Source: a bacterium
Lineage (GTDB): Bacteria > Hinthialibacterota > Hinthialibacteria > H5-UNCL2
DNA: 64,000 nucleotides
Direction of reading: 5' to 3'
Assembly (NCBI GenBank): GCA_015075175.1
Contig: JABTUV010000012.1
Coordinates: forward strand, 36,018 to 100,017
Shown: piece after piece, positions 11,555 to 64,000 of the stretch
Layout of the letters: each line of letters opens with the position of its first letter
How positions within the stretch are numbered: position 1 is the first letter of the stretch
Notes under the pieces: generated by a model
Seen by the model: the letters and a program-made list of their open reading frames with translations, nothing else
What the model was told of the DNA's origin: nothing
The model's database searches: none
Program-made: the position numbers and the translations under genes

Positions 11555-12016
11555 TCAGTTATCCAGGAATCGGAGGTTTTCGCGCAGTTGCTCGATCTCC
11601 GCTTCATAGGCTTCGTAAAGGCCCGGGGAGTTCCAGATCACGACGGCCATGAAGCGGTCTCCGTCCTGAATCAGGTAGTGCCGGTCGATGCCGATGCGCG
11701 CCGCACCGTGCGGATCCGGCAGGTGGACGGCGTTCTGGACCAACAGCGCCTGCCGGCCTCCAACCTGGACAGGAATCGCTGGCTTGCCGGCCAGCTGCGG
11801 AAAACTCGCGGCGAATTCGGAGAGGTTCTCGTAACCGTGACCCCGGACTCCCAGAAGAAAGACCTTCAGGAACTCGCCGCCGCTGTCCAAGTCGCGGGTG
11901 AAGCTGACGAGCATCTGGTCGTCCCACTCGAACTCGGTCTGGAGCTTCCAACCGCGCAAGGCGGGCATTTGGAGCTTGGCTCCGAACTCGCGGTAGTGGA
12001 TGTTTCTCGTGGTCAT
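11555..12016 (-). CDS. hypothetical protein
   Basis: 153-aa ORF, coding-like composition, no recognisable motifs. Confidence 0.45.
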   Translation of the reverse strand: MTTRNIHYREFGAKLQMPALRGWKLQTEFEWDDQMLVSFTRDLDSGGEFLKVFLLGVRGHGYENLSEFAASFPQLAGKPAIPVQVGGRQALLVQNAVHLPDPHGAARIGIDRHYLIQDGDRFMAVVIWNSPGLYEAYEAEIEQLRENLRFLDN

Positions 12017-12179
12017 GGCGGCCTCCTTTTCGGCCCGGAGCGTCCCTGCGGGCGCGTAACCTTGTCGTCGATATTTTACTACATGTAAATTATAATGTCA
12101 ATATTGTAACGAAAAATAGTTATCTTTCTCGGCCTGACTCGGCCGCTGGCGGACCGCATGGAGCGCGCCAGCTTGCTGG

Positions 12180-38566: not shown

Positions 38567-38721
38567 GAATGTTCATCCTCCATCGCCCCGTTGGGGGCAG
38601 CTCGAAGCTCTATTATGGCGCGGGTGGGCGGGGAGTGTCAATCGCCTTGCCGGTCCGATTTCCGCTTGACCGCTTCATGGCCCGCGTTCAACATGAGACC
38701 AACGTCGCAGGGGGAATCGCC

Positions 38722-39981
38722 ATGATCCGGCGCATCGAAGCGCTCGGTTATCGATGCCTGAGGTACCTGAGCCAGGACTTGGACCGATTCCAGGTTCTGG
38801 TAGGACCGAACGGTTCAGGCAAAAGCACGTTTCTCGACGTCGTGGGTTTTCTGAGTGATTTGGTCAATCACGGACCCGAGAAGGCGGTCGGTTTTCGCAC
38901 TGAGGATTATCACGACCTCGTGTGGGGGCGGGCGGGCGAACGTTGGGAGCTGGCGCTGGAATTGGAGATTCCCGCCGCCCGCCGGGCGCTCCTTGATGGG
39001 CAGGCGTTCGATCGCGTGCGATACGAAGCCGCCCTTGGCCTGGATGCGGCGACCGGCGCGTTGGCGATTCTCGCTGAAAAGGTCCTCCTGAAAGACAGCC
39101 GGCGGGAGCAGCGCATCCACGCGCCGGTTGAAACAACACTCTTTCCCGTAGTCCGAGAGCAGCCCGAGACCATCCTGACTACCAAGGTTGCCAAGAACAC
39201 CAAGACCGTGGTGAATAAAGTACCCGGCAGCAACGACAACTTCTACGACGAAACGGGAAGGGGCTGGGACCACGCCTTCAAGCTGGGCCCGCTGAAATCC
39301 GCGCTCGGGAACCTGCCGGACGATGAATCGAAGTTTCCCGTCTCCACCTGGCTGAAGGCGATGCTCTTGGACGGCGTGCAGCGCCTTACTTTGAATAGCG
39401 AGCTGATGCGCCGCCCCAGCCGCCCGGGACAACCGCGCCAGTTTCGCCCCGATGGTTCCAATCTGCCCTGGGTCGTCCACAAGCTGCGTCACGACGATCC
39501 GGTCCGATTTCACGAGTGGGTCCGCCACGTTCAGACGGCGCTGCCCGAGGTGAGCGACATCGATACCGAGGAGAGGGCCGAGGACCGCAGCCGCTATCTG
39601 GTGCTTCGCTACGGGCGGGAGCTGGCCGTGCCGTCCTGGGCCGTTTCAGACGGTACGCTGCGTCTCCTGGCACTCACGCTGCCCGCCTATCTGAAGAACC
39701 TTGAAGGCGTGTTCCTGATCGAAGAGCCGGAGAACGGCATTCATCCGCGCGCCGTCGAGACCATGCTGCAGTCGCTCTCCGCCGTCTACGATGCGCAGGT
39801 TCTTCTGGCGACCCATTCACCGGTTATTCTGAGCATGGCTGAACCGTCGCAGATTCTGTGTTTTTCCAGGACCGAGAGCGGCGTCGTGGACGTGGTGCGC
39901 GGGAACGAGCATCCCGCGCTGCGCGACTGGCGCCGCGAAACGAGCCTGGGAGTTCTGTTTGCCGGCGGAGTGCTGGGGTGA
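38722..39981 (+). CDS. AAA family ATPase (AAA_21/ABC-type, OLD/Abi-like)
   Basis: Walker A VLVGPNGSGKST near the N-terminus, Q-loop, Walker B-like FLIEEPENGIHP and LLATHSP near the C-terminus; an SMC/ABC-like ATPase with the Walker motifs split. Confidence 0.65.
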   Translation: MIRRIEALGYRCLRYLSQDLDRFQVLVGPNGSGKSTFLDVVGFLSDLVNHGPEKAVGFRTEDYHDLVWGRAGERWELALELEIPAARRALLDGQAFDRVRYEAALGLDAATGALAILAEKVLLKDSRREQRIHAPVETTLFPVVREQPETILTTKVAKNTKTVVNKVPGSNDNFYDETGRGWDHAFKLGPLKSALGNLPDDESKFPVSTWLKAMLLDGVQRLTLNSELMRRPSRPGQPRQFRPDGSNLPWVVHKLRHDDPVRFHEWVRHVQTALPEVSDIDTEERAEDRSRYLVLRYGRELAVPSWAVSDGTLRLLALTLPAYLKNLEGVFLIEEPENGIHPRAVETMLQSLSAVYDAQVLLATHSPVILSMAEPSQILCFSRTESGVVDVVRGNEHPALRDWRRETSLGVLFAGGVLG

Positions 39982-47663: not shown

Positions 47664-50114
47664 TTACGCCTGGCGAAGATGGACGCCGAGGTCCCGCTCC
47701 AGCCGCCGCGCGATCCTGCCGACCACGGCGTTGGCCTTTTCGTCCGTCAAGGTCTCGCCGGCGGCGCGCAGGACAAGGCGATAGGCCAGGCTGCGGCAGC
47801 CGGGCTGGACCTGGGCGCCGCGGTATTCGTCAAAGAGGGCCATCTCTTCCAGGAGCGCGCCCGCCCCCTCGGCGATGATGGAGGCGATGGCGTCGCTGGG
47901 CACGCCCTCGGGTGCGACCAGCGCCAGATCGCGTCGCACCGCCGGCAGTCCCGAGGGGGCAGCATAACTCCGGGCGCCGCTTCCCGCCAGCGCCTGGATG
48001 CGGTCCACGTCCAGTTCCAGGACGGCTACCACCCCCGACAGGTCGCCTCGTTCGACCACCGCGGGATGCAGTTCGCCGACCACGCCCAGGAGCTCGCCGC
48101 CGCAGGTGACGGCGGCGCTGCGGCCGGGGAAGAGATAAGGGCGACTCTCCTCGCAGAAACTCAGTGCGGGAAGGCGAAAGCGCTCGCCCAGCGCCTCCAC
48201 CAGGCCCTTGGCATCAAAGTAGTCCCAGTGTCGTTCCGGCAGCGCCCAGTGGCGCTCGACCGCGCCCCACAACATCGCCGCCACCACCCGTTTTTCGCAG
48301 TGCAGGGCATCGGGTCCGGCGGCGGGCAAGTACACGCGCGCCAGCTCGAAGACGGCCAGGTCGGCCACGTCTTGCCGCTGGTTGTTAAGGACTACCTGCC
48401 ACAGGCTGGGCAGGAGCGATGTGCGCATCTTCGACAGGTCCTCGCTGAGGGGATTGGCCAGCTCCACCGTCTTGCGCAGGTCGCTGTCGGCGGGCGCGCC
48501 CAGCCTGTCAAAGTCCCGCTCGCCGATGAAACTGAAGGTGACAACCTCCGAAAGCCCGCACTCGGCGAAAAACCGCTTCACGCGCCGCTCGAATCCGTAG
48601 CTCGTGGCCGGAATCCGACTGGCGGCGGTAGACGGGGGCACGGTACTGGGCACGCGGTCGTAGCCGTAAACGCGCGCGACCTCCTCGATCAGGTCCACCT
48701 CGCGGAAGAGATCGACGCGCGCGGTGGGTACGCTGACGGAGATGCGGTCCTCGTCGGTGGGATGCGGCTCGACCGGATGGCGGACGAGGTCGTCGGGCAG
48801 GCGCCGCAGGATGGCGAGGAGGTCTTCCCGGGGGATGCGCGCGCCCAGGAGATGCTCGAGCCGGGAGACGCGCAGTTCCACGCGGCGGGAACGGGTCTCG
48901 GGGCTGCGCGACTCCGCTGGAGCGGTATCGTCCAGCCTGCCGGCCAGGACCTTCCCGCCCGCCCACTCGGCGATCAGGCGGGCGCAGCGGTCCAAGGCCA
49001 CCGGCACGTTCTCGAAGTCCGTTCCCCGCTCGAAGCGATAGGAGGACTCACTGGAGAGTCCCACGCGGCGACTGGTGCGACGCACGCCCGTCGGCTCGAA
49101 CCAGGCGCTTTCCAGCAGGATGCGACGGGTGTGCGGGCGTACTTCGCTGCGCTCTCCGCCCATCACGCCGGCGAGTGCCACCGGGCCGGCGGCGTCGGCG
49201 ATCACGAGGTCGTCGCTACAAAGCGTTCTCGTCACACCGTCCAGGGTGACCATGCTCTCGCCGTCACCCGCCCGCCGCACGATGATGCTGTCGCCGGCTA
49301 GGAGGTCCAAATCGAAGGCGTGCAGGGGATGGCCGTATTCCAGGAGCACGTAGTTGGTGGCATCGACCACGTTGTTGATGCTGCGGATGCCCAGGCTCTC
49401 CAGGCGGCGTTGCACCCAGTCGGGCGAGGGGCCGATGGCGACGTTTTCGATCACGCGCGCCATGTAACGCGGGCAGCGGTCGGGCGCATCCACGCGCACG
49501 CGATAGGCGCTGGACGCGGGCTTCTCGTCCTCAACGACTTCGGCTGGGGGAAAAGCCACAGCCACGGCCAGCGAGAAGCGCAACTCCCGCGCCAAGCCCA
49601 CGTGCGACAGGAGGTCGGGTCGGTTGGGGGTGACGTTGATTTCAAAGAGCGTGTCATTCATCCCAAGATAGGCCGCGACCGGCTCGCCGACTTTCGCCTC
49701 TTGCGGGAGGATGCGCACGCCCTGTGCTTCTTCCGAGACGCCCATCTCCTTGTCGGAGCAGATCATGCCGTGGGAAAAGAAGCCGCGGATCTTGGTCTTC
49801 TTGATTTTGGTCCCATCGGGCAGGCTGGCGCCCGGCCGGATGAAGCAGATTTTGTCGCCCGCTTTGTGGTTGGGGGCGCCGCAGATGACTTCCCATACCG
49901 CCTCGCCGGTATCCACCTTGCAGAAGGTGAGATGGTCGCTGTCGGGGACCTTGTTGCATTCGAGAATGCGGCCGACGACGAAGGCCTCCAGGCCGGCGCC
50001 CTGGGGGTGGATGGCTTCGACTTCCAGGCCGGTCATGGTGAAGTGGGTAGCCAGTTCGGAGGGGGGCAGGGAGACGCCGGTCAGCTGGGATAGCCAAAGG
50101 TAAGAAGTCTTCAT
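47664..50114 (-). CDS. pheT: phenylalanine--tRNA ligase beta subunit
   Basis: 816 aa; tRNA-binding N-domain, B3/B4, B5 and FDX-ACB domains in the canonical order. Confidence 0.9.
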   Translation of the reverse strand: MKTSYLWLSQLTGVSLPPSELATHFTMTGLEVEAIHPQGAGLEAFVVGRILECNKVPDSDHLTFCKVDTGEAVWEVICGAPNHKAGDKICFIRPGASLPDGTKIKKTKIRGFFSHGMICSDKEMGVSEEAQGVRILPQEAKVGEPVAAYLGMNDTLFEINVTPNRPDLLSHVGLARELRFSLAVAVAFPPAEVVEDEKPASSAYRVRVDAPDRCPRYMARVIENVAIGPSPDWVQRRLESLGIRSINNVVDATNYVLLEYGHPLHAFDLDLLAGDSIIVRRAGDGESMVTLDGVTRTLCSDDLVIADAAGPVALAGVMGGERSEVRPHTRRILLESAWFEPTGVRRTSRRVGLSSESSYRFERGTDFENVPVALDRCARLIAEWAGGKVLAGRLDDTAPAESRSPETRSRRVELRVSRLEHLLGARIPREDLLAILRRLPDDLVRHPVEPHPTDEDRISVSVPTARVDLFREVDLIEEVARVYGYDRVPSTVPPSTAASRIPATSYGFERRVKRFFAECGLSEVVTFSFIGERDFDRLGAPADSDLRKTVELANPLSEDLSKMRTSLLPSLWQVVLNNQRQDVADLAVFELARVYLPAAGPDALHCEKRVVAAMLWGAVERHWALPERHWDYFDAKGLVEALGERFRLPALSFCEESRPYLFPGRSAAVTCGGELLGVVGELHPAVVERGDLSGVVAVLELDVDRIQALAGSGARSYAAPSGLPAVRRDLALVAPEGVPSDAIASIIAEGAGALLEEMALFDEYRGAQVQPGCRSLAYRLVLRAAGETLTDEKANAVVGRIARRLERDLGVHLRQA

Positions 50115-50271: not shown

Positions 50272-50347
50272 GCAGGAGTAGCTCAGTTGGTAGAGCTCCA
50301 CGTTGCCAACGTGGTTGTCGCGGGTTCGAGTCCCGTCTCCTGCTCCA
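50272..50347 (+). tRNA. tRNA-Gly (anticodon GCC)
   Basis: Cloverleaf folded by hand: acceptor GCAGGAG/CTCCTGC, D-arm GCTCAGTTGGTAGAGC, anticodon stem CCACG/CGTGG with loop TTGCCAA, T-arm GGGTTCGAGTCCCG, 3' CCA encoded. Confidence 0.9.
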
Positions 50348-50438
50348 TAAGTCTTCGAAAACCAACCACTTAGGTGACCGGCTTTTGCCGTGGGTTGTAA
50401 CCGTCAGGTCAATTGACCTGAGAATGGAGGTTTCGCCC

Positions 50439-51650
50439 ATGCGCATGCAAACGCCACGGACATCAGCTCCCCCTCTCTGCCACCACAAACCCAGCGGACG
50501 GGCACACGTCAACCTGGACAGCAGACGCCGCGTCTATCCGGGCAAGTTTGGCACCAAGCAAGCGAACGAGAACTACCGCCGCTTCATCGCGGAGTGGTCG
50601 GTCGGTGCTCACGATCATTGCGGCAAGCGCCGACTCCTGGTGCTGGACCTCATCGCCAGGTACCAGCAGTTCTGCCGGGAGCACTACCGGCAAGCGGACG
50701 GGACCGTGCTCCAAGAGGCGCAGGCGGTCCAGTACGCCTTGAAGCCGGTCCGAGAGCTGTACGCGGACCTGCCAGCGGAGCAGTTCGGGCCGCTGAAACT
50801 GAAGGCCGTCCGTGAAGCAATGATCGCTCGTGGGTGGAACCGCACTTACGTCAACCAGAAGGTGGGTCGCGTGAAGCGGATGTTCAAGTGGGCGACCGAG
50901 AACGAGCTGATACCGCCAGCGGTCTGGCACGGACTGCATGCTCTCGATGGGCTTCGAACCGGGCGCTGCCAAGTCCGCGAACCAAAGAAGGTCGCGCCCG
51001 TGGCAAACGAGCTCGTCGAAGCGACGAAGAAGCACGTCTCACGGCAGGTCGCGGCGCAGATCGATTTCTTGCTACTCACCGGCGCGCGTCCTTCGGAACT
51101 ACTCTCTTTGCGGCCGTGCGACATCGACCGCAGTGAGTCCGTCTGGCAATACCGCCCCCGAACGCGCAAAAACGCCCACCGTGGTCAGGACCGTGTGATC
51201 TACTTGGGGACCAATGCGCAGGCCGTCCTCAAGGAGTTTCTCCTGCGACCTGCGGAGGCCTTCCTCTTCAGTCCACGAGAGGCCGAAGCCGAACGCCACA
51301 CCCTGTCTCCTACGCACCGACGCGCCGACCAGAAACCGAACGTCAACGAGACAGGCAGAAGAGTGCGGGACAGATACGATGCACGATCCTTCTACCGGGC
51401 AATCCCTCGCGCGTGCGATGCAGCCTTTCCGCCTCCCGAGCACTTGGACGAAGAGGGGCTTGCCGCCTGGAGGGCGGCGCACCGCTGGTTCCCATACCAA
51501 CTCAGGCACAACGCCGCTACCTTGCTCGCGACGGAGTACGGAATCGAAGCCGCACAGACCATCCTGGGGCACAAGAAACTCGATGCGACCCAGATTTACG
51601 CGGAGCGGGACAGAGAGAAGGCGAAGAAGATCATCGCGAAGGTGGGATAG
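50439..51650 (+). mobile_element. tyrosine-type site-specific integrase adjacent to the tRNA-Gly 3' end
   Basis: C-terminal catalytic motifs LLLTGARPSELLSL (Arg box), HNAATLLATEYG...LGHKKLDATQIYAERD (H-x-x-R...Y); begins 92 bp after the tRNA. Confidence 0.85.
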
Positions 51651-52093
51651 GGCGGGGAAGTTCCGAGCTTCTTGGGTGAACAGTTCTGCGCGCACTCCTT
51701 GCGTTCGCGCGAGCGGTACGAGGTGGTGTCGAGAAGTCTGTCGCCACTTCCCGCTCCTGGGTCCGGTCGGACCCAAGCGCAACCGTCGCAGACACGATTT
51801 GTTTACTTGAAGATTTCGATAGACGCAAAACACAGTTAATGGCACAATACTTCCTACGAGCTGAGAATTTTGGCCGAAAAGATCGCAAGGGCCACCTGGC
51901 CCAAACTCAGAGAGGAGGTGAAAGGTTTTTCAGTTCGATGTTCTCTCCCGATAGTCGCTTTGCAATTAGACGAAGCTCGGGAGTGATTCCTGCATGATTC
52001 CACGCTGTCCAAACCCGGACAGCATTCATGAAGACGGCTCGGGCACCTAGCCACCCGACGCCACTCCAAATACCGACTGAGGAGTAGTTCTTC

Positions 52094-52372
52094 ATGGATA
52101 TCCATGACCCTTTCGAAACCGAGCGCAAGCTCGTTTTTCAAGATCTCACGAATATCCTAAACACTGGCCTAAACCGCCACCAGCCGCACTACTCGTACCA
52201 GATGCTCTGGAGGTGGGCGAGGCGCGGGGTCTGCGCACACAACGGTGAAAGAGTCCGCCTCGAACATGAGCGTCGGGGCGGACGACTATACACAAGCGTC
52301 GAAGCGATTCAGCGATTCGGCCAGAATCTGGCGGAGGCGGATACGGAGTACTTCGATGAGAGCGCCGGCTGA
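52094..52372 (+). CDS. DUF1580-like small DNA-binding protein (excisionase/regulator candidate)
   Basis: 92 aa; WRWARRGVCAHNGERVRLEHERRGGRLYTSVEAIQRF resembles the Planctomycete DUF1580 pattern; AT-rich upstream region. Confidence 0.4.
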   Translation: MDIHDPFETERKLVFQDLTNILNTGLNRHQPHYSYQMLWRWARRGVCAHNGERVRLEHERRGGRLYTSVEAIQRFGQNLAEADTEYFDESAG

Positions 52373-53480
52373 ATCGGCGGTAATCCGAAGCGCGGTCACG
52401 GTTACGGCCCTGACGGGCAAGCAGTCGGGCAACTACAACTTCTCCAATGAAGTGATCCCCAACGAGGCCGTGACCCTGACCCTCAACACGGCGGGAACCT
52501 CCGCGTCCGGCGCCCTGGCGGTGCACTCGGGCGGGGGCATCCGTCCGGGTACGGTCTCTATCGCGGTCACGTTCGACCTCTCGACCGCCTCTTCGAGCGT
52601 GGCGGGCACCCTGCAAGACAACGGGCAGGGCGGGCAGACCGCGCGGCGCACCGACACCGGCGCGGCCCTCACCGTCGCGGCGTCGGCCATCAACTGCATG
52701 ACGGGCGCGTTCTCCATCACCATCACGGGCGATGCGTTCGCGTCCGCATCGGCCACGGCCACCTATCGGGTCAATCTGGAGGGTTCCTCGGACATCCCCG
52801 AAGTGGACGTTCAGATCACCACGAGCACCGTGGAGACCGAGCGCCGCGCCATCAAGCTGCGCTACAGCCGTGAGGCTGCCGACGACGTGATGGCCGAGTG
52901 GGGATTCTCCCTCGAACCGACCATCATTCAGGGCATCGCCGCCCAGTGCATCGCGGAGATGTGGGTTTACGCGACCGTGGCCTCCACCTTCTCCATCACC
53001 CCCGGTTCGGGAGTGGCCTACAACCAGCAGGCTCACTTCGCGGACTTCATCTACAACTTGAACGTCGCCTCCAACGCCATCCAATTCGCCACGCGCATTG
53101 CGTATGGCAACTGGATCATCGTGGACCAGGGTGCGGCGAACGTGATCGAGTCCCTTCCGGGCACCATGTTCCAGGCGGCTCCGAGGCCGGAGTACGCGAT
53201 GGGTCTCCACTACATCGGACTCTTGATGGGCAAGTTCCGGGTGTACAAGTGGCTGTACCTGTCCGCCCTGCCGGGGGTCTCGGCCTATGGCAACTTGCTG
53301 ATGGGCTGGAAGGGAACCGAACCGTGGGACGCGGGCTTTGTGCTGGCTCCCCAACACCAGCTCTACACCACTGATCAAATCACGCTGGAAGGCTTTGTGA
53401 GCCGTCGTGGGTTCGCCACCCGCAACGCCACCAAGGTCATCAACCCGAACGTGTTTCGGAGGATCAACCTGTCGGCGTAA
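52356..53480 (+). CDS. phage major-capsid-like protein (stand-alone)
   Basis: Ser/Thr-rich N-half, E-loop-like ERRAIKLRYSREAADDVMAEWGFSLEPTIIQGIAAQ, HK97-like C-half; no other head genes nearby. Confidence 0.45.
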   Translation: MRAPAESAVIRSAVTVTALTGKQSGNYNFSNEVIPNEAVTLTLNTAGTSASGALAVHSGGGIRPGTVSIAVTFDLSTASSSVAGTLQDNGQGGQTARRTDTGAALTVAASAINCMTGAFSITITGDAFASASATATYRVNLEGSSDIPEVDVQITTSTVETERRAIKLRYSREAADDVMAEWGFSLEPTIIQGIAAQCIAEMWVYATVASTFSITPGSGVAYNQQAHFADFIYNLNVASNAIQFATRIAYGNWIIVDQGAANVIESLPGTMFQAAPRPEYAMGLHYIGLLMGKFRVYKWLYLSALPGVSAYGNLLMGWKGTEPWDAGFVLAPQHQLYTTDQITLEGFVSRRGFATRNATKVINPNVFRRINLSA

Positions 53481-53595
53481 TGACGCGGTGTCATTCGACA
53501 AGGACATGGTGGCATTCTTGGCGGAGTCGAGCCGGAGCGAGGCGCAAACCGCCGTCCGGTTGCGCTACTACCGCCAGAACCCGGAGGACGTGAAC

Positions 53596-54498
53596 ATGTT
53601 ATTCTTGGACGACGACCAGATGTGCGCACAGCTCACGACGGCGGAGCTGAACGAGGCCAGCCTGTCGCGGATTTTCTCGCACATGGGTTCTCAGCCGTTC
53701 GCCATCGTGTCCGCGCAGCGTGGAGACCGGATTACGGTCTCGAAGGACGCTACCCCCGCCGAGAAGGAACAGGCGGCCATTGCGAACACTGCGGCGAACA
53801 ACCAGATGCGCCAGTGGGCCGCGAGCGAAATCCGTTCCATCTTCAAGAAGAGCTTCATCAAGGTAATGGGGGCTTACCGGGAGAAGGGTGCGCCGGACGT
53901 GGACAGAGAGTACAGCTTCTTCCTCCCGAACGTGTCCCGTGAGGAGGCCCTGAAGCTGGCCCGGCACTTCACGTCCCACAAGACCTCCGGCGACCCTGAT
54001 AACATCTTCTGGGGCACGCCGGACAAGGAGGGTTTCTGGGTTTACGGGGACGGTCGCTTCAAGAAGATCGGCGACCGGATCACCACGTCCAACATGCCCA
54101 AGTACTACACCGAGTGGCGGTGGCGCAAGAACCGGAGCGCGGTGAATAAGCGCGCCGGGGCGCGCTTCACGTCCGTGGGGCGGCTTGGGATTACGGACAT
54201 CCGCGCGCGGGGCGAGTCCGAGTACGTTGCGCGTATCCGCTACATCCCCGAGTCCATCCACGAGTTCAAGAGCTGGATTATGGAGCTGGATAGCGTCATC
54301 GAGACGCGGGGAGCTGACACACAGTACGCGACCCGCTTTCGGGACGACGCGGGGGAGTTGACCATCAAGGCGGGCGACTACATCCGCTGGCGTACCTTGG
54401 CAGGCGACCCTCATTACGGCCCGATCAAGCAAATGGACGGCAACGTCGCCGTGATCGACTGCGAGGTGCACCACAAGGACTGCCCGTGCGAGTGCTGA
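53596..54498 (+). CDS. hypothetical island protein (C-terminal Cys motif HHKDCPCEC)
   Basis: ATG with GGAGG RBS inside track ORF 53407..54498; no family recognised. Confidence 0.4.
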   Translation: MLFLDDDQMCAQLTTAELNEASLSRIFSHMGSQPFAIVSAQRGDRITVSKDATPAEKEQAAIANTAANNQMRQWAASEIRSIFKKSFIKVMGAYREKGAPDVDREYSFFLPNVSREEALKLARHFTSHKTSGDPDNIFWGTPDKEGFWVYGDGRFKKIGDRITTSNMPKYYTEWRWRKNRSAVNKRAGARFTSVGRLGITDIRARGESEYVARIRYIPESIHEFKSWIMELDSVIETRGADTQYATRFRDDAGELTIKAGDYIRWRTLAGDPHYGPIKQMDGNVAVIDCEVHHKDCPCEC

Positions 54499-54645
54499 CG
54501 TGCGACCCGCCGCCGGTCAGACCTGGGTGGGCGCGACCCCCAAGACCGAGCGGCTCGTGGTGCGAGTGACGCGGCTGCACGACAGCCGCGCTTACTTTGA
54601 CCGGCTGGATGTTCGGGCGTTTGGTCGCATGGACTTGGAGGTAGC

Positions 54646-55257
54646 ATGACGCGCAAGGTGGACACCGCTGTCGTGCCGCAAGCCCGGATTGAGCGGGTCA
54701 TTCTCGTGGTTCGAGGAGTGAAGGTCATCCTTGACGCCGAACTGGCCGCGCTCTACGGGGTGCCGACCAAGCGCCTCAATGAGCAGGTCAAGCGCAACGC
54801 CGACCGCTTTCCGGAGGACTTCAGGTTCCGGCTCACCCGCGAGGAGCACGATGCGGTCCTGCGGCTGAGCTTGGAGGCGGAACCCGCGAACCGGTCACAA
54901 ATTGCGACCGCTCCGAACCGGTCGCAATTTGTGACCGATTCCCAAAAGCACCGCGATCCGCGCTACCTGCCCTGGGCCTTCACGGAGCACGAGACGATCA
55001 TGGCCGCGAACGTGCTCAACTCCCGGCGGGCGGTGGAAATGAGCGTCCACGTGGTGCGCACCTTCGTGCGCCTGCGGGAGGCGGCGGGGCGTTACGAAGA
55101 ACTCGCCCGACGCCTTCGCCAGGTCGAACAGCGCGTCGGGCAACACGACACCCATCTGGCCGGCATTCTGCGCGCGCTACGCCAATTGGCGGAAGCGCCC
55201 GAACCCAAACGCATCGGCAAGACCGGTTTTGCAGTCCCGGAGAAGAGATCGAAATGA
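54646..55257 (+). CDS. ORF6N (KilA-N-like) domain protein
   Basis: N-terminal ERVILVVRGVKVILDAELAALYGVPTKRLNEQVKRNADRFPEDFRFRLTREE matches the ORF6N DNA-binding domain; contains an internal tandem operator-like palindrome pair at 54887-54937. Confidence 0.6.
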   Translation: MTRKVDTAVVPQARIERVILVVRGVKVILDAELAALYGVPTKRLNEQVKRNADRFPEDFRFRLTREEHDAVLRLSLEAEPANRSQIATAPNRSQFVTDSQKHRDPRYLPWAFTEHETIMAANVLNSRRAVEMSVHVVRTFVRLREAAGRYEELARRLRQVEQRVGQHDTHLAGILRALRQLAEAPEPKRIGKTGFAVPEKRSK

Positions 55258-55559
55258 GCGAACGGAAAACCCGCCTTGAACTCACTTGGATCGGCAAGGA
55301 GAACCGGGCGAAGCTGGAGCCTCGGGTTTTGCTTGAGGACCCGGAGTTGTCGTATCATGCGGCGCGGCGAGTTTCGGATAAGGATATCTTCGACAACCGG
55401 CTCATCTTCGGCGATAACCTCTTGGCGCTCGAGGCGCTGGAGCAGGAGTTCGCCGGCACGGGCAAGTGCAATCGGAACGACCCGCCGTGCAACGCAGCCT
55501 CAGCTTTCGCCCACTACGCCGGGGGCCACGAATGTCACCATGACATTCTGGCAGAGTAA
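55254..55559 (+). pseudogene. N-terminal remnant of a type III (beta-class) DNA methyltransferase Mod; catalytic DPPY reads DPPC, then a premature stop
   Basis: LTWIGKE...RLIFGDNLLALEAL...GKCNRNDPPCN parallels the intact Mod at 61557 (RMILGDSLQVMASL...GKVQMIYLDPPYG) but ends after 101 aa. Confidence 0.55.
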
Positions 55560-55927
55560 TGCCACTATTGACAGAAGTGATGCTTGCGCTCACTCGGAAG
55601 GTCGGCCTGCGAGCTGAAGCTCCGAGGACGGTCCCCGACGCCACTACAACGCGCCGGGAAGCCCGGAAAAGCCACGATGTAAGGCCCCCTTGGGCGGCTA
55701 CGAAGCGAACCACGGCGACCGTCCTGGCGTGGCATCGTGACACTCTCTCCGGCTTGTGACACGATGACCTTCGATTGCGTCGCTTGAAAGGGGTCGGCAC
55801 TTCCGTCATACTGGTTGCCGCCGTTGACCCACGACCTGCTACACCGGACTGAAGACCATTGTTAAGTGGACCGTGCTAGAGTTCCAAGTTGGGAACCGCC
55901 GCGTCGATGTCTGAGTGAGGTTTGCCC

Positions 55928-58900
55928 GTGAAGCAAGTGGTGATCGAAAACCCCATCCTGAACTCCCCCTTCGAGGAGCCGTCCCGGCATTTCCGCTTCA
56001 CGGACGAGGGGATCACCGACGACATTGACGATGGCCGCCGCGAGAGCGCCTACTTCATCCCCGTCCCGCCGCCCAAGAAGAAGGGCCAGGCCGACACCCA
56101 GATGGCGCTGCCGGAAACGCACTGGACCAGGGACCGCCTCAAGCCCAACGACGACATCAATCGCATCCGCACGCATGTCGGCCTGTGGCGGCGGGCCGGC
56201 TACCGTGGCGTCACGGCGACCACGGCCAAGCTCCTGGCGCACTGGAACGACCCGACCCGCGAGCGGAAGCTCTTCTTTTGCCAGCGGGAGGCGGTCGAGA
56301 CCGTCATCTACCTGACCGAGATCGCCGAACGCGACCAGAACGTGTGGATTCTCAACCGGCTGCGGGACTACAACCGCGACGCCAACCCCGAGCTCTTCCG
56401 CATGGCCCTCAAGATCGCCACCGCCGGCGGCAAGACCACCGTGATGGCCATGCTCATCGCCTGGCACACGCTCAACAAGCAGGCCAACAAGCAGGACGCC
56501 CGCTTCTCGGATACGTTCCTCATCGTCACGCCCGGCATCACCATCCGCGACCGCCTGCGCGTGCTCTTGCCGTCCGACCCGGACAACTACTACCGCAAGT
56601 GGGACCTCGCGCCGCCCGACCTGATGCAGCAGCTCCTCCAAGCCAAGGTGCTCATCACCAACTTCCATGCCTTCAAGCTGCGCGAGAAGGTCTCCCTCAA
56701 CAAGACGGGCAAGGCCGTCATGCAGGGCACGGATGCCAAACCGCCCTCCTTCACCGAGACGCCCGACGAGATGGTCCGGCGCGTCTGCCGCGATCTCGGC
56801 AACAAGAAGAACATCGTCGTCATCAACGACGAAGCCCACCACTGCTACCGCCACAAACCGGACGGCGCAGAAGAAGTGCTCAAGGGTGAGGATCGCAAAG
56901 AGGCTCAGAAGCGCGAAGAAGCCGCCCGCATCTGGATTTCCGGCATCGAGGCGGTCAAGCGGAAGATCGGCGTGCGCATGGTGTACGACCTGTCGGCAAC
57001 CCCGTTCTTTCTGCGCGGATCGGGCTACCCGGAAGGCATGCTCTTCCCGTGGGTCGTCTCGGACTTCGCGCTGATCGACGCCATCGAGAGCGGCATCGTC
57101 AAGGTCCCTCGCGTGCCCGTCGCCGACGACTCCATGATCGGCGAGCAGCCCACCTATCGCGATCTCTGGTATCGCATCCGCGAGGGGCTGCCCAAGAAAG
57201 GCCGTGGGACCGAAGCCGTCGCCGGCGAGCCGGTCCTGCCGGCGGAGCTGGAGAGCGCGCTTCAAAGCCTGTACGCCAACTACAAGAAGCGCTTTACCGC
57301 CTGGCAGGCGAGCCGTGACGGCAACAACTCCCATTCCACGCCGCCCGTGTTCATCGTCGTCTGCAACAACACCAACGTGTCGAAGCTGGTCTTCGACTAC
57401 GTCTCTGGCTGGGAGAAGCCGCTCCCCGACGGCGACTCAGTCCTCGTCCCCGGCCACCTGGAGCTCTTCAGCAACGTCGAGAACGGCGCATGGTCCGCGC
57501 GGCCCAAGACCATCCTGATCGACTCCGAGCAGCTGGACTCCGGCGAGGCCATGAGCGACGAGTTCCGCAAGGTCGCCGCCGTCGAGATCGACGAGTTCAA
57601 GCGCGAGTACGCCTGGACCGCTTTCCCGGTCGGGACGTGGAGAAGATCGGCAGCGAAGACCTGCTCCGCGAAGTCATGAACACGGTCGGCAAGCCCGGCA
57701 AGTTGGGTGAGCAGGTCCGATGCGTGGTCAGCGTCTCGATGCTGACCGAAGGCTGGGACGCCAATACCGTCACGCACATCCTGGGCGTGCGCGCATTCGG
57801 TACGCAGCTCCTGTGCGAGCAGGTCGTCGGGCGGGCGCTCCGGCGCATCAGTTACGCCGCCAACGACGAGGGCAAGCTGGAGCCGGAGTACGCCGAAATC
57901 TACGGTGTGCCCTTCTCCTTCATCCCGTGCGCCGGCGCGCAGAAGGAACCGCCGCCCGGCCCCACGCCTACCCGCGTGCGCGCCCTGTCGGAGCGGATCG
58001 ATTGCGAGATCACCTTCCCGCGCCTGCAAGGCTACCGTTACGACTTCCACGACGCCGAGCTGCACGCCACGTTCACGCGCGATTCGCGCATGGCGCTCTC
58101 GACCGACGACGTACCCACCAAGGTCGAGAACGCCCCCATCGTCGGCGAGACCACCATCCACACCCTGGACGAGCTCAAGGCCCGCCGCCCGCAGGAGGTC
58201 GCCTTTCTCCTGGCCAAGCTCGTCCTGGAGCGGTACTTCCGCTGGGACGGCGTCGTGCAGCCGGAGAATAAGTCGGAGCACAAGTGGGAGGCCGGCGTCA
58301 AAGCCTGGCTCTTCCCCCAAGTGCTACGCATCGCCAAGGACTGGATGGCCGAATGCGTCGTCTGCAAGGACAACTGCTTCCCGCAGATGCTCCTGCTCCT
58401 GGAGTTTGCCCACGGCGCGGCCAACCGCATCTATCACGCCATCGTGCAAGGCGACCAGGGCGAGAAGACGCTCAAGCCGATCCTGTTTCCGTATGATCCC
58501 GAAGGCAGCACGCGCTACGTGGACTTCGACACCACGCGCCCGGTGTATTCGACGCGCCCCGACAAGTGCCACGTCTCGCACGTGGCCGCCGATACCAAGG
58601 ACTGGGAGCAGAAGGTCGCGCGCTCGCTGGAGGACATGGACGAGGTGGTCTGTTACGTGAAGAACCAGAACCTCGGCTTCAAGATTCCCTACGTCGCGAG
58701 CGGCGAGCCGAGGAACTACGTGCCCGATTACATCGTCCGCATCAATGACGGCGCGCCGGAGCCGCTCAACCTGATTATCGAGGTGACGGGTGAGAAGCGC
58801 CCGGACAAAGCGGAGAAGGTCGCCGCCGCCCGCGCGCTCTGGGTCCCCGCCGTCAACAACCACGGCGGATTCGGACGATGGGCGTTTTTGGAAGTGGACG

Positions 58901-58959
58901 ATCCGGCGAATGTGAAGAACGCGATCCGGGATTCCATACCGGCATTGAGCGAGGGATAG
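55928..58959 (+). CDS. type III restriction endonuclease Res subunit (DEAH helicase), split by one frameshift near 57630
   Basis: N-terminal VIENPILNSPFEEPSRHF, Walker A IATAGGKTTV, DEAH VINDEAHHC (frame of ORF 55922..57679). Motifs V-VI MLTEGWDANTVTHILGVRAF...QVVGRALRR are in ORF 57490..58959. Frames join at gctttcccggtcggg. Alternative TTG start at 55922. Confidence 0.6.
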
Positions 58960-58965
58960 CTGGCA

Positions 58966-59868
58966 ATGGTACCGACTCAGGGACAACTTCATTTGTTTGG
59001 CGGCGATTGGACCAAAGAGAAGCTGGAGCGCGTGCGACAATACCTCACGGCGTACACCAAGATCATGCGCAAGAAGGACTACCAGTTTGGATACATAGAC
59101 GCCTTTGCCGGAACGGGATACCTAGCCCTGAAGGATGCAAAGGCCGAGGCCAAGCGCTTATTTCCTGAACTGATGGAGACGGAAGCTCGTGATTTCGTCG
59201 AAGGGTCCGCCCACGTCGCCTTGGAGGTGGAACCGCCTTTCGAGAAGTACATCTTCATTGAGAAGCAGGGCTGCCGGTCGTCGGAGCTGCAACGACTACG
59301 CGACGAGTTTCCCGCCAAGGCCAACGACATCGTGATCGTGCAGGCCGAGGCCAACACCTACCTGCAAGACTTGTGTCGCAACCGCGTTTGGAAGAAGCAT
59401 CGTGCCGTCCTGTTCTTGGACCCATACGGAATGCAGGTGGAGTGGGAGACCATGAAGGCGATTGCCAAGACGCGCGCCATAGACCTCTGGCTCCTCTTCC
59501 CTTTGGGCGTGGCAGTAAACCGACTACTCCGTCGGGATGGGCTAATAGACGAGGGCTGGCGGCATCGCTTGGACCTCATGTTCGGGGATACGGGCTGGTT
59601 CTCGCGCTTCTACAATGTCGAGAACGAGCAGACCTTCTTCGGCCCGGAGCAGAAGGCAGTGAAGACGGCGGACGCCAAGGCGATTGGTCGCTACTTCGTC
59701 GAGCGGTTGCAGAGCGTGTTTCCCGGAGTCGCGAAGAATCCCCTGGCTTTGAGCAATACCAAGAACTGCCCCCTTTACCTGCTATGCTTTGCCACGGCGA
59801 ATCCAGACGCTGCGACCTTGGCAGTGAAGATTGCGCAAGCCATTCTCAGAGGGCCGAGGATACGCTAA
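58966..59868 (+). CDS. TcmP-like protein (three-Cys-motif partner protein family)
   Basis: 300 aa; overall similarity, from memory, to the TcmP family that pairs with DUF5131 (Gp37/Gp68) proteins; starts 7 nt after the Res stop. Confidence 0.5.
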
Positions 59869-60632
59869 TGGGCATGAAATCCTCCATCGAGTGGACCGAG
59901 TCCACTTGGAATCCGATAACGGGGTGCGACAAGGTCAGCCCCGGATGCAAGTTCTGTTACGCCGAGCGCATGGCCATGCGGCTCCAGGCAATGAGGCAGC
60001 CCAACTACCGCAATGGCTTTGCGCTGACCGTGCATGAGCACGCGCTGGAGCTCCCGCTCCGCTGGAAGCAGCCTCAGACGATCTTCGTCAACTCCATGTC
60101 GGACCTCTTCCACAAGGACGTACCGCTGGCGTTCATCCGCCGCGTCTTCGACGTAATGAAACGAGCACACTGGCATCGCTTCCAAATCCTGACCAAGCGC
60201 TCGGAGCGGCTCTTCATGCTGCGGAGCAAGATCGAATGGCCGCCCAACGTCTGGATGGGCGTCAGCGTCGAGACCGCGCACTACGCGGAACGAATCGACC
60301 ACCTGCGCAAGGTCCCCGCCGCGATCCGCTTCCTCTCGCTGGAGCCGCTGCTCGGGCCGCTGCCGGGTCTCGACCTGTCGGGAATCGATTGGGTGATCGT
60401 TGGCGGGGAGTCCGGGCCGGGCGCGCGTCCGATGGATGAAGCATGGGTGCTCGACATCCGCGACCAGTGCGAAGCCGCCGGCGTTCCCTTCTTCTTCAAG
60501 CAATGGGGCGGTGTCAACAAGAAGAAGGCGGGGCGACTACTGGAGGGCCGGACGTGGGATGGGATGCCGCTCCGCTTCCAGTCCGAGACGCCGATTCCGT
60601 CTGAGGACCTCGCCGCGGCTGAGCGAAGTTAA
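59868..60632 (+). CDS. phage Gp37/Gp68-family three-Cys-motif protein (DUF5131)
   Basis: N-terminal [30 protein letters not shown] (C-x5-C-x2-C), typical of DUF5131; start overlaps the TcmP stop (TAATG). Confidence 0.6.
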
Positions 60633-60664
60633 CCACACGATTTGTATCGAGGGGACGCTCACAA

Positions 60665-61546
60665 ATGGGAGGGAGAGCAGTGAATGACAATTCCCAGCAT
60701 ACCAGCACACAGAGGAGCCACGAACCGCTGGTGGGCTTCGTCAACCTTGCGCGGGCGCTACTGCTGCTTGGTATTGTGAGTTTTCTTGGCGTTGCCGGCC
60801 TTCTCTTGTTGACACATCCGTCCGTCAACTTCTCACTCAAACAACGCCTCATGCGCCAGGAGGAGGAAGCGCGCGCCGTCAGGGAAGAGCTGGCGCGGTT
60901 AACCGCGGAAAGTGAGAAGGCGACTGCCGCGGAAAAAGAGAAACGGCTGCGCCAATGGAAATACGACTTGTTCTCCGACGTTGACGTAAGGGAAGATAGC
61001 TATCCCATTGTGGTGCTGCGCAGTGGGTTCAAGGTCATTCGCTTGGGGACGGACCACTCGTTAGTTGGATGGAAATACGAGCTGATTAACACGTCACCGA
61101 AGACCACGTATGTCGCCAATGTGACCTTTACGCTTCAGGATGCCGATGGCTTCGACATCGATTCCGGCGTAGGGGAGGCGGCGATTCCGGCAGAGCGATA
61201 CGGCGTAGTCACTGGAACTATCAACGTCGACAACGTAGATGTCGAGCGGCTTTCGGATTCCAGCTGGGCGATTGGGCTGAAGCCTAACTGGAAGGAAAAC
61301 GAGCGCCAAACCCCCGGAACTCGGGACTCGCGACTCACAAAACTAGCGAAATCCCAGATGCCTCTGTGGGTCTATGAGCTTGCGAAACTGGAATACATGG
61401 GCATTTCCGCGAAATGGAAGGCGATTCAGGTCGGCCTTGGAATCGAGTTACCGGCGAACCCCCCAGATGCACCCGCGGGGGCAACCCCGGAGTCCGATTC
61501 CAAGCCGGGCGCAACTGCTCCAGTCAGTGAGACTACTGCCAAGTAA
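60665..61546 (+). CDS. membrane-anchored hypothetical protein
   Basis: 293 aa; N-terminal TM helix LLLLGIVSFLGVAGLLLL, coiled-coil segment, C-terminal beta-rich domain; alternative GTG start at 60680 with GGGAGGGA RBS. Confidence 0.4.
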   Translation: MGGRAVNDNSQHTSTQRSHEPLVGFVNLARALLLLGIVSFLGVAGLLLLTHPSVNFSLKQRLMRQEEEARAVREELARLTAESEKATAAEKEKRLRQWKYDLFSDVDVREDSYPIVVLRSGFKVIRLGTDHSLVGWKYELINTSPKTTYVANVTFTLQDADGFDIDSGVGEAAIPAERYGVVTGTINVDNVDVERLSDSSWAIGLKPNWKENERQTPGTRDSRLTKLAKSQMPLWVYELAKLEYMGISAKWKAIQVGLGIELPANPPDAPAGATPESDSKPGATAPVSETTAK

Positions 61547-61556
61547 AGGACTGCTC

Positions 61557-64000
61557 ATGGTCAGACGCAAGAGTAACGCGAAGACCCCCGCCTCCATCCC
61601 TGTGGAGGCCCATACGCACAAGGACAAGCGCAAGAATATCCCCACGCGAGAGCTGCGGGATTTCGTCGAGGATGAGGAAAAATCCCCCAAGACGCTGCTC
61701 TATCCGCGCGATCCGTCGCTGGACCCGCAGCTGGTCTGGAAGGGGAAGGATGAGCAGGACGCCGCCGACCTCGTAGTGGTCGCGCCGCCGATTTACATTC
61801 AGGAGAAAATCCATCCGCAGGCCATCGTCGAGGACATCCGCGCCTCGGCCAGGAGCGCCGGGCGGGAGCGGCAGATGGATTTGTTCGCCGACTTCAACGG
61901 CCTCTCCTTCGAGCAGAAGATCGAGTTCTACCAGCACGACGCGCATTGGTCCAACCGCATGATCCTCGGCGACTCACTCCAGGTCATGGCGTCGCTGGCG
62001 GAGAAAGAGGCGTTGCGCGGCAAGGTGCAGATGATCTACCTCGACCCGCCCTACGGCATCAAGTTCGGCTCCAACTGGCAGGTGAGCACCCGCAAGCGCG
62101 ACGTGAAGGACGGCAAGGCGGAAGACGCCACGCGCCAGCCGGAACAGATTCGCGCCTTCCGCGATACGTGGAAGCTCGGCATCCACAGCTACCTCGCCTA
62201 TCTCCGCGACCGCCTTACCGTCGCCCGTGATCTCCTGACCGAGTCCGGCAGCATCTTCGTCCAGATGAACTCGGAAAACGTTCACTTAGTGCGATCATTG
62301 CTCGACGAGGTGTTTGGCTCCGAAAACTTTGTTGCCGACATTGTCTTTAGAAAGAAGAGCCTGCCTCTTGGCGCGAAGTATCTGGAGACGATGCACGATC
62401 ACGTACTCTTTTATGCCCGAGATGTAAACTTTCTCAAGTTTCGCCACTTCTACGAGCGAGGTGGCGTCGAGATCGTCGGCGGTCATGGACCATACGCGCT
62501 GTACCCTGACGGTAGTCATGAACGCATATCTGAAGATGAGTTTGAGTCGTCAGAGCATCCCGAAGGGACGCGGTACTACTGCCTGTTCGCTCTCCTTGCG
62601 CCCTCATTTTCCGCAAATACTGTGTATCAATATCGAGTTGACGGACGCGATTTCGACTCGCCTAACAACGGTTCATGGGTGGTTACGTCGAGTAAGCTTG
62701 ATGTGTTGAAATGCGCTGACCGCCTGGAGCCGGAGGGCAAGAATCTCCGATACCGGCTCATGTATGACGACTTTCCTTATCGAAAGGGAACGAACATATG
62801 GGTAGATACACAGGCCGCCTTCAAGAAGTCCTACGTCGTGCAGACCAGCACGAAAATCATTGAACGCTGTCTCCTCATGACCACCGATCCCGGCGACTTG
62901 GTGCTCGATCCGACGTGCGGGAGTGGGACGACTGCCTACGTGGCCGAGCAGTGGGGGCGGCGCTGGATCACCATTGATACGAGCCGCGTCGCGCTGGCGC
63001 TGGCGCGCACCCGCCTGATGGCCGCCCGCTTTCCGTACTACCTCCTCGCCGACACGCGCGAAGGCATGGAGAAGGAAGCCGAGCTCTCCGGCCAGCCGAT
63101 GCCCGACATTTCCCCGCAAGGCGATCTCAAGAAGGGCTTCGTCTATCGCCGCGTGCCGCACGTAACGCTGAAGTCCATCGCCAACAACGCGGAGATTGAT
63201 GAAATCCACGCCCGCTGGCAGAAGCAGCTGGAGCCGCTCCGCGCCAAGCTCAACAAGGCCGCCCGCGAGAAATGGGAGGAGTGGGAAATCCCGCGCGAGC
63301 CGGGCGAGAAGTGGAGCGCCGAGGCCAAGTCGCTACACGGTGAGTGGTGGAAGTTGCGCCGCCGGCGCCAAGCCGAGATTGACGCCTCCATCGCCCGCCG
63401 CGCCGAAACGGAGACGCTCTACGACCAGCCGCTCGACGACAAGAAGCGCGTGCGCGTGACCGGCCCCTTCACCGTCGAGAGCCTGTCGCCGCATCGCGTG
63501 CTTTCCACCGACGGGGAGATGCCCCGGAGCGAACGCAGCGGCGAGACGGAGAAGTCGGGCCGCTACGAGAGCGTGATCCTTGAGAACCTGAAGGCGTCCG
63601 GCGTGCAGAACCAGACCAAGACGGAGCGCCTGAAGTTCGACCGCCTGGAGCCGCTGGCCGGCACGTGGTTGCAGGCTGCCGGCGAATACACCGAGAACGG
63701 CAAGTCGCGCCGCGTGGCGGTCGCGCTTGGACCCGAGCATGGGACGGTCGGCCCGGATCTCGTCAAGGAAGCGGCCAAGGAAGCGGTCCTCGGCGTGGGC
63801 TACGATCTATTGCTCGTCTGCGGCTTCGCCTTTGATCCGCACGTGTCGGAAGAGACGAAACGCTACGGCAAGCTGACCATCCTTCCGGTGCGCATGAACC
63901 CGGACCTGTCGATGGGCGACGAGCTGCTCAAGAAGACGGGATCGGCGAACCTGTTCATGGTCTTCGGCGAACCGGACGTGATAGTGAGCAGTGGGCCGTG
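61557..64000 (+). CDS. type III restriction-modification Mod subunit / N6-adenine (beta-class) DNA methyltransferase, partial; ORF runs off the window
   Basis: Open frame from ATG 61557 (RBS AAAGGA) to the window end with no stop (the track omits edge-truncated ORFs). Motif IV IYLDPPYG precedes motif I VLDPTCGSGTTAYVA, the beta-class order; long C-terminal extension. Confidence 0.7.
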   Translation, partial: MVRRKSNAKTPASIPVEAHTHKDKRKNIPTRELRDFVEDEEKSPKTLLYPRDPSLDPQLVWKGKDEQDAADLVVVAPPIYIQEKIHPQAIVEDIRASARSAGRERQMDLFADFNGLSFEQKIEFYQHDAHWSNRMILGDSLQVMASLAEKEALRGKVQMIYLDPPYGIKFGSNWQVSTRKRDVKDGKAEDATRQPEQIRAFRDTWKLGIHSYLAYLRDRLTVARDLLTESGSIFVQMNSENVHLVRSLLDEVFGSENFVADIVFRKKSLPLGAKYLETMHDHVLFYARDVNFLKFRHFYERGGVEIVGGHGPYALYPDGSHERISEDEFESSEHPEGTRYYCLFALLAPSFSANTVYQYRVDGRDFDSPNNGSWVVTSSKLDVLKCADRLEPEGKNLRYRLMYDDFPYRKGTNIWVDTQAAFKKSYVVQTSTKIIERCLLMTTDPGDLVLDPTCGSGTTAYVAEQWGRRWITIDTSRVALALARTRLMAARFPYYLLADTREGMEKEAELSGQPMPDISPQGDLKKGFVYRRVPHVTLKSIANNAEIDEIHARWQKQLEPLRAKLNKAAREKWEEWEIPREPGEKWSAEAKSLHGEWWKLRRRRQAEIDASIARRAETETLYDQPLDDKKRVRVTGPFTVESLSPHRVLSTDGEMPRSERSGETEKSGRYESVILENLKASGVQNQTKTERLKFDRLEPLAGTWLQAAGEYTENGKSRRVAVALGPEHGTVGPDLVKEAAKEAVLGVGYDLLLVCGFAFDPHVSEETKRYGKLTILPVRMNPDLSMGDELLKKTGSANLFMVFGEPDVIVSSGP

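Follow-up and report, generated by a model that had tools for sequence, protein, structure and literature searches.

What occupies the 13.7 kb between a tRNA-Gly(GCC) gene and the right edge of a 64,000-nucleotide stretch of contig JABTUV010000012.1 (assembly GCA_015075175.1, Hinthialibacterota), which we refer to as the window, and how did this DNA get there? The original prediction, made from the sequence alone, had described it as a tRNA-anchored genomic island with an integrase, a lone capsid-like gene reminiscent of capsid-forming phage satellites, and defense cargo that included a decayed type III restriction-modification (R-M) system. Our analysis supports the island but leads to a different reading of the capsid-like gene and of the R-M genes. 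We conclude, with a probability of roughly 0.75, that the segment starting at position 50348 and reaching 64000 or beyond represents a genomic island of an ordinary kind, integrated at tRNA-Gly(GCC) and made up of phage debris and defense cargo.

The first line of evidence is the left junction. The tRNA-Gly(GCC) gene at 50272-50347 (+ strand; ARAGORN), the sole match in an Rfam scan (69.7 bits), is considered the integration target and the left attachment site (attL). The left flank of the island is formed by the core gene pheT at 47664-50114 (- strand), which encodes the phenylalanyl-tRNA synthetase beta subunit with five PheT Pfam domains. On the other side of the tRNA, an intact tyrosine integrase of 403 amino acids is encoded at 50439-51650 (+ strand; PF00589, 5.5e-12; phrog_1, 4e-27). 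Its ATG at 50439 is the 92nd base past the tRNA end at 50347, as had been predicted, and the same start was obtained in an independent gene call on the Logan contig L084 (SRR11593520), which corresponds to positions 50300-57688 of the window; a second Logan contig, L001, corresponds to positions 57666-62070. The catalytic residues R217, R356, H357, and Y387 of the integrase, along with the His of the LGH motif, aligned with those of its relatives.

The second line of evidence is the comparison with relatives at the same locus. This lineage is poorly sampled, and only three close PheT homologs were found (79%, 73%, and 63% identity; the next best had 46%). The locus with the most similar PheT, L087, has the same divergent pheT/tRNA-Gly(GCC) arrangement, with a tRNA that is 100% identical and a conserved pheT-tRNA spacer, and on the pheT side the gene order is shared over approximately 7 kb, comprising zapB, zapA, and genes for a 5'-nucleotidase, a metallophosphatase, and a radical SAM (S-adenosylmethionine) protein. 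The alignable sequence stops 2 nt past the 3' end of the tRNA, which lacks an encoded CCA. After the tRNA, L087 contains housekeeping genes in place of the island, namely, a sigma54 activator and metal-cluster genes, with Nitro_FeMo-Co, DUF5320, and ferritin-domain genes in this part, and no integrase; none of these genes is present in the window, and none of the island is present in L087. The two other relatives, L088 and L089, are uninformative, as neither has the tRNA at this locus. The sigma54 activator of L087 belongs to a highly conserved family, with hundreds of matches at 75-78% identity.

The third line of evidence is nucleotide composition. The window is GC rich, and coding frames were picked by the GC content at third codon positions (GC3). 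The GC content was 0.618 in 50348-64000 vs. 0.660 in 1-50271, and local drops were confirmed, such as that at 51780-52100, where a value of 0.495 was measured. In the tetranucleotide profile, the correlation to the core was lower in all seven 2-kb windows of the island (0.76-0.91 vs. 0.84-0.97; Mann-Whitney, p=2e-4), and the L1 distance was 0.297 in the island as compared to 0.221. The shift in composition is located at the tRNA-Gly, and it extends over 50348-64000, in agreement with the earlier view that everything downstream to the window edge is accessory. Every credible gene from the integrase to the window edge is on the + strand. Outside the island, the lowest GC content (0.597) and the lowest tetranucleotide correlation (0.84) were observed in positions 1-2000; this segment is probably not foreign and contains ordinary genes (cupin, ribosomal protein L31).

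The integrase family provided further information on the origin of the left end. Seven relatives were retrieved from metagenomes (35-54% identity in the best segment of each), and two of these were short partial matches. Four of the seven start approximately 110 nt 3' of a tRNA gene in the same orientation; these loci (L090, L092, L093, and L095; 35-42% identity) involve tRNA-Arg(TCG), tRNA-Thr(TGT), tRNA-Asn(GTT), and tRNA-Pro(TGG). In a fifth locus, the match lies approximately 4 kb from a tRNA-Met, and the remaining two loci contain no tRNA gene. Across these relatives, the catalytic Arg, Arg, His, and Tyr are kept. A single integrase family is found next to many different tRNA targets, and the geometry is constant. 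No match to the integrase was found among INPHARED phages, and the scans of IMG/VR gave no relatives of the integrase or of the protein ORF330 described below, and no close relative of the capsid protein.

Downstream of the integrase, a small protein of 92 amino acids is encoded at 52094-52372 (+ strand). Its match to DUF1580 is sub-threshold (PF07618, 4.7e-4; 20.2 bits, Pfam cutoff 24.4), and it shares 51% identity with an open reading frame (ORF) of L092 that likewise comes next to the integrase and that, with 26.4 bits, scores above the cutoff. A DUF1580-like ORF is present, as originally proposed, and we regard its product as a putative excisionase or small DNA-binding regulator. The 10-kb contig L092 shows the order tRNA-Thr, integrase, DUF1580, PD-(D/E)XK nuclease, AAA_24, DUF669, helicase, and primase/DUF3987, which corresponds to a phage-type early region. 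Because L092 has the same gene pair ahead of this region, we take the integrase-DUF1580 pair as the module by which a family of phage-like elements integrates at tRNA genes. The interior of such an element has been replaced in the window. Taken together, the L087 site that lacks the island, the composition, the integrase family, and the scattered relatives of the methyltransferase gene described below uphold the view of a tRNA-Gly-anchored, integrase-bearing accessory region.

The gene that follows the DUF1580-like ORF had been described as a lone capsid-like gene. The homology part of this claim stands, since the 374-amino-acid product of 52356-53480 (+ strand), which has the locus tag HS125_17170, is a homolog of the T4 gp23-type major capsid protein (MCP), with 87.2 bits vs. 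a cutoff of 24.4 (PF07068, 1.9e-24); what it misses is that the gene is a remnant of T4 type, truncated at its 5' end. Our search of a 5.8-billion-protein set gave 45 MCP homologs at 43-53% identity, all of which have approximately 500 amino acids except a few that are cut by contig ends. The window protein begins at the motif KQxxG(F/Y)NFSNEV and lacks approximately the first 130-170 residues, including the conserved block SDYLFPIIRAxFPTNPINDLVSVQPT; in addition, it has an internal deletion of 8 amino acids. The family profile matched T4 gp23 in the PDB at 5e-16, and, because it aligns to this structure, the missing part would correspond to the propeptide plus some 70-85 residues at the N-terminus of the mature protein; assembly requires the propeptide and the N-arm. 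The AlphaFold2 (AF2) model (predicted local distance difference test score [pLDDT], 76) matches the capsid folds of P1 and T4. Identity to the MCPs of cultured phages is below 30%. In sequence and predicted fold, its insertion domain and A/P core resemble those of the T4 gp23 and P1-type HK97-fold MCPs.

The genomic setting of the gene differs from that of its homologs. Two of these homologs were viewed in context, on contigs of 139 and 141 kb, where each has a prohead protease (S77) on one side and gp13-, sheath-, and baseplate-type genes on the other; this setting is a T4-like virion module on myovirus contigs. The window gene, in contrast, stands alone, without the protease, portal, and vertex genes that flank its homologs. 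Homology to the MCPs sets in right where the DUF1580 ORF ends, and this boundary looks like a deletion junction. No second lone truncated copy was detected among 46 homologs, and the protein cluster of the window MCP has a single member; because there is no second copy of this kind, we found no evidence for a conserved exapted MCP family. On one of the myovirus contigs (L085, approximately 139 kb), a gene for an HNH/NUMOD4 homing endonuclease at 11596-12126 follows directly after the MCP gene, on the opposite strand.

The next gene, at 53506-54498 (+ strand), encodes a protein of 330 amino acids (ORF330) that consists of a SAM-lyase-like domain (residues ~40-210) and a small Cys/His-rich C-terminal domain. 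The score of ORF330 itself with PF23780 (S-AdoMet lyase) is below the cutoff of 28 (18 bits, 0.003), and its putative membership of this family is derived from its homologs. An exhaustive HMMER search retrieved 43 relatives, and all nine of the scanned relatives that cover the domain matched PF23780, with scores that exceeded the gathering cutoff in seven cases and reached 59 bits and 6e-16. When the AF2 model (pLDDT 67) was compared with folds in the PDB, the top match was the T3 SAMase 7OCK, which is a weak match (E=0.036, probability 0.97, template modeling score 0.5, target-normalized), and the family profile gave no match among PDB sequences. In phage SAM lyases, three residues are strictly conserved, corresponding to G56, E69, and Q104 of Svi3-3 (PMC7877911). 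ORF330 keeps the Gly, Glu, and Ser of the pocket as G122, E135, and S137, with the spacing of Svi3-3 G56/E69/S71 (13 and 2 residues), whereas it has Pro164 at the position where 18 of 18 aligned relatives have Gln. It further differs from T3 SAMase and Svi3-3 by approximately 45 extra N-terminal residues and approximately 120 residues after the lyase-like domain, which include the Cys/His-rich C-terminal domain, and its gene is chromosomal, not an early phage gene. On the basis of these sequence comparisons, ORF330 is probably a phage-derived counter-restriction gene whose product is probably impaired, perhaps inactive. A search with tblastn of the two phage loci that contain the MCP homologs gave no match to ORF330, which lends no support to a common phage origin with the MCP.

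Three giant proteins retrieved among the relatives, P0296 (2340 amino acids), P0304 (1967 amino acids), and P0306 (2833 amino acids), have C-terminal SAM-lyase-like domains (PF23780, up to 6e-16). P0304 and P0306 additionally contain AAA/STAND-like NTPase domains. This architecture suggests that SAM cleavage may serve as the activity of an effector domain in these proteins.

The remainder of the island consists of R-M genes and candidate defense genes. The ORF6N/KilA-N protein of the original annotation was recovered as an ORF6N-domain protein of 203 amino acids (54646-55257, + strand; PF10543, 3.5e-24), which also matches the PADLOC candidate defense family PDC-S05 (PDLC04856, 8e-42). Its gene contains a 27-nt tandem duplication at 54886-54941, the second copy of which has its palindromic core in inverted orientation (GAACCGGTCACAAATTGCGACCGCTCC / GAACCGGTCGCAATTTGTGACCGATTC). 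Through the duplication, which is capable of forming a hairpin of 23 bp, the ORF6N domain is longer by nine residues (NRSQIATAP|NRSQFVTDS). The following ORF of 101 codons (55254-55559, + strand) overlaps the stop codon of the ORF6N gene and is an N-terminal fragment of an R-M methyltransferase (Mod), with homology over approximately the first 70 amino acids (phrog_67, 5e-4). It shares 26% identity with the N-terminus of the downstream Mod, and its top PDB match, the Mod protein 6K0W, is weak (E=0.17). We consider this ORF, with moderate confidence, to be a remnant of another R-M gene, and it would represent the truly decayed R-M piece of the island.

Five genes follow on the + strand. The first encodes Res, a restriction endonuclease/helicase of the BPTD_3080 family (55928-58959). 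It is followed by the three-Cys-motif partner gene TcmP (58966-59868; TIGR04474, 1.4e-58; PADLOC PDC-M41A, PDLC04635, 4.6e-119), by a Gp37/Gp68-like, radical-SAM-related DUF5131 gene (59868-60632; PF07505, 8.6e-106; PADLOC PDC-M41B/M30B, PDLC04639, 6.7e-123), and by ORF293, a gene for 293 amino acids (60665-61546) whose start is uncertain, as it is called at 60680 in L001. The last gene is a type III-like Mod methyltransferase that is cut by the window edge (61557-64000; PADLOC PDLC03632, 1.4e-259; PF01555, 1.4e-29). Because the median length of its relatives is 932 amino acids, approximately 120 amino acids of this Mod would lie beyond 64000. The predicted TcmP/DUF5131 cassette is present; both genes of the PADLOC candidate PDC-M41 were found, abutting at 59868. 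ORF293 had no match to any Pfam, NCBIfam, PHROG, or PADLOC family and was also called as an ORF in L001, a contig that differs from the window by one single-nucleotide polymorphism at 61450. A literature search on DUF5131 gave a single paper, with no more than a mention of the domain, and for TcmP the matches were dominated by other meanings of the term.

In the assembly, a 2-bp insertion (TG) at 57614-57615 splits Res. The two halves match NF046055 at 1-542 and 538-968 and score 696 and 499 bits, both under the NCBIfam equivalog cutoff of 800, whereas removal of the TG yields a protein of 1009 amino acids that scores 1208 bits. The insertion is missing from L084, which constitutes the sole difference over 7.4 kb, and all 57 relatives encode Res in one uninterrupted frame. 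Given the absence of the TG from L084 and the full score of the repaired protein, the lesion is either very recent, polymorphic, or an assembly error.

To place these genes in context, we surveyed the neighborhoods of 80 loci (L004-L083) with Mod relatives of 57-70% identity. These relatives are scattered over many bacterial phyla and also occur in two archaeal metagenome-assembled genomes (MAGs). A BPTD_3080-family Res gene was found upstream of Mod on the same strand in 66 of the 80 loci, with a gap between both genes that ranged from 2 to 5683 bp. DUF5131, often together with TcmP, was located inside this gap in approximately 15 of the 80 loci. No gene downstream of Mod was conserved. Because Res precedes Mod in 66 loci, we interpret the window genes as a single Res-to-Mod operon, with TcmP, DUF5131, and ORF293 in its predicted cargo slot; more generally, the Res-Mod gap of this widespread type III-like R-M family appears to behave as a slot for cargo insertion. 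The earlier reading of a decayed type III system followed by a separate second Mod is thus replaced by that of one operon in which Res is broken by a 2-bp insertion alone.

This operon resembles type III systems (EcoP15I-like) and BPTD_3080 systems in the ResIII helicase and C-terminal endonuclease domains of Res, in the N6_N4 methyltransferase domain of Mod, and in being a conserved gene pair. It differs in the order Res then Mod, in the large size of Mod, in the variable slot that holds TcmP, DUF5131, and ORF293, and in the 2-bp frameshift of the window Res in the present assembly. The two archaeal MAGs, Methanoregula and Methanolinea (L005 and L061), contain the Res-Mod pair with 59-66% protein identity, which indicates that this pair may have moved between bacteria and archaea.

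These data are consistent with the following sequence of events. A tyrosine integrase would have recombined site-specifically with tRNA-Gly(GCC) at its 3' end, without disruption of the tRNA. The left end would be a conserved integration module, and the replication and virion genes expected after it would have been lost. Phage debris would come next, namely, the gp23-type MCP without its 5' third and the SAM-lyase-like gene in which the substrate-binding Gln is replaced by Pro. The defense cargo would then comprise the ORF6N gene, the Mod stump, and the type III-like operon Res-TcmP-DUF5131-ORF293-Mod, of which Res is expected to translocate and cut unmodified DNA, Mod to methylate the host DNA, and TcmP/DUF5131 to act as an accessory pair in the recurrent Res-Mod slot. 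We infer that the island represents a gain in the lineage of the window and not a loss in L087, that its cargo has a defense function, and that it is a largely immobilized, decaying element.

An element of this type would belong with the tRNA-integrated islands and cryptic prophage remnants that have P4-type integrases. It shares with them an integrase directly 3' of an intact tRNA, an atypical composition, the absence from a related genome, and cargo composed of R-M, candidate defense, and degraded phage genes. It differs in that no relative of the integrase was detected in cultured phages and those found elsewhere have identities of only 35-45%, in that the right attachment site (attR) is unseen, and in that the host is an unclassified MAG lineage.

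Several observations weigh against this interpretation. The 3' end of the tRNA (GGGTTCGAGTCCCGTCTCCTGCTCCA) has no second copy within the 64-kb window (up to 3 mismatches per 26 nt or up to 4 in any 20 nt). The window thus contains no attR repeat; the right end would lie past 64000, outside the sequence covered, and the extent and the unity of the island are hence presumptive. The absence of the island is based on a single informative relative, L087. Apart from the frameshift, for which an assembly error may be responsible, Res is intact, and decay is thus overstated for this gene. Finally, the truncated MCP ORF is open, uninterrupted by stop codons or frameshifts, has a high GC3 (0.86), and may have retained a function. 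The start of L084 at 50300 was also considered as a clue to an att repeat, and was rejected; the shared 30-mer stops inside the T-loop (GGTTCGAG/A), and other tRNA genes in the metagenome explain it better.

The unity of the segment is the point on which the best-surviving alternative differs. According to this alternative, at least two acquisitions are stacked at a tRNA hot spot, namely, a gutted phage-like element from the integrase to ORF330 and a separate R-M/defense block from the ORF6N gene to Mod. It would account for the two deletion-type junctions, between the DUF1580 ORF and the truncated MCP and between the Mod stump and Res, for the variation in GC content between the blocks, and for the presence of the Res-Mod unit alone in many unrelated genomes that lack this integrase. 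However, no second integrase, internal att-like repeat, or insertion sequence element lies between the blocks, as a repeat search detected no att-like or insertion sequence-like repeats, and all genes have one orientation. We thus consider stacked acquisition possible but on balance unlikely, and it would refine the island reading rather than compete with it.

Far less probable is that the region is ancestral and was lost from L087, or that the locus was rearranged there, without any insertion in the window. In favor of this option, L087 is the only relative that can be consulted, and with a PheT identity of 79% the two genomes are not close. Nevertheless, the breakpoint lies at the 3' end of the tRNA and abuts an integrase of a tRNA-targeting family, the composition is atypical, and the cargo consists of phage-derived and R-M genes with a patchy distribution across phyla.

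The island reading also has to be weighed against the earlier suggestion of a capsid-forming satellite. Phage-inducible chromosomal islands of the capsid-forming type (cfPICIs) have 11 core components, namely, integrase, regulator, primase/replicase, terS, terL, capsid, protease, portal, head-tail adaptor and connector, and HNH, of which detected elements carry at least 9, whereas 4-5 core genes are the criterion for PICIs (PMC10085698). In 50.3-64 kb, the Pfam, NCBIfam, and PHROG searches detected no primase/replicase, terS, terL, portal, protease, or head-tail adaptor, which leaves at most 3 of the 11 core components (the integrase, the sub-threshold regulator candidate, and the truncated capsid). 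The resemblance is confined to the order of the integrase, small regulator, and capsid homolog at the left end; the capsid gene is a fragment of T4 gp23 type, and the suggestion was abandoned. The segment does not qualify as an intact prophage either, as no replication, packaging, head, tail, or lysis module was found in the 13.7 kb examined.

A more specific version of capsid reuse is that the MCP fragment is exapted and expressed as a dominant-negative subunit that poisons the head assembly of T4-like phages, possibly with the altered SAM-lyase-like protein and under the DUF1580 regulator; we regard this as a highly speculative scenario. The least credible of all is a functional satellite that hijacks a T4-like helper through its integrase, regulator, and capsid-forming or -remodeling protein, since, despite the three genes in a row, the coding-like GC3 of the open capsid ORF, and the origin of its relatives in the capsid genes of real phages, this capsid has lost approximately 130-170 N-terminal residues and 8 internal ones, genes for replication, packaging, and head completion are absent from 50.3-64 kb where detected cfPICIs carry at least 9 of 11 components, the 46 homologs include no other lone truncated capsid, and IMG/VR lacks relatives of the integrase, MCP, and ORF330.

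The main value of these data lies in the corrected annotation. Where a capsid gene stands alone beside an integrase, its completeness should be verified before it is taken as a sign of a satellite, and Res and the downstream Mod should be annotated as one predicted operon. Two by-products may be of use to phage defense specialists, namely, the recurrent Res-Mod cargo slot, which often contains the uncharacterized pair TcmP/DUF5131, and the SAM-lyase-like domains at the C-terminus of giant AAA/STAND-like proteins; both leave the verdict unchanged that the island itself is an ordinary one. Lastly, the core part of the window contains at 38569-39981 a gene for an AAA_21/AAA_15/DUF2813 ATPase of 470 amino acids (OLD/Abi-like type), located in a stretch with a slightly lower GC content (0.625).

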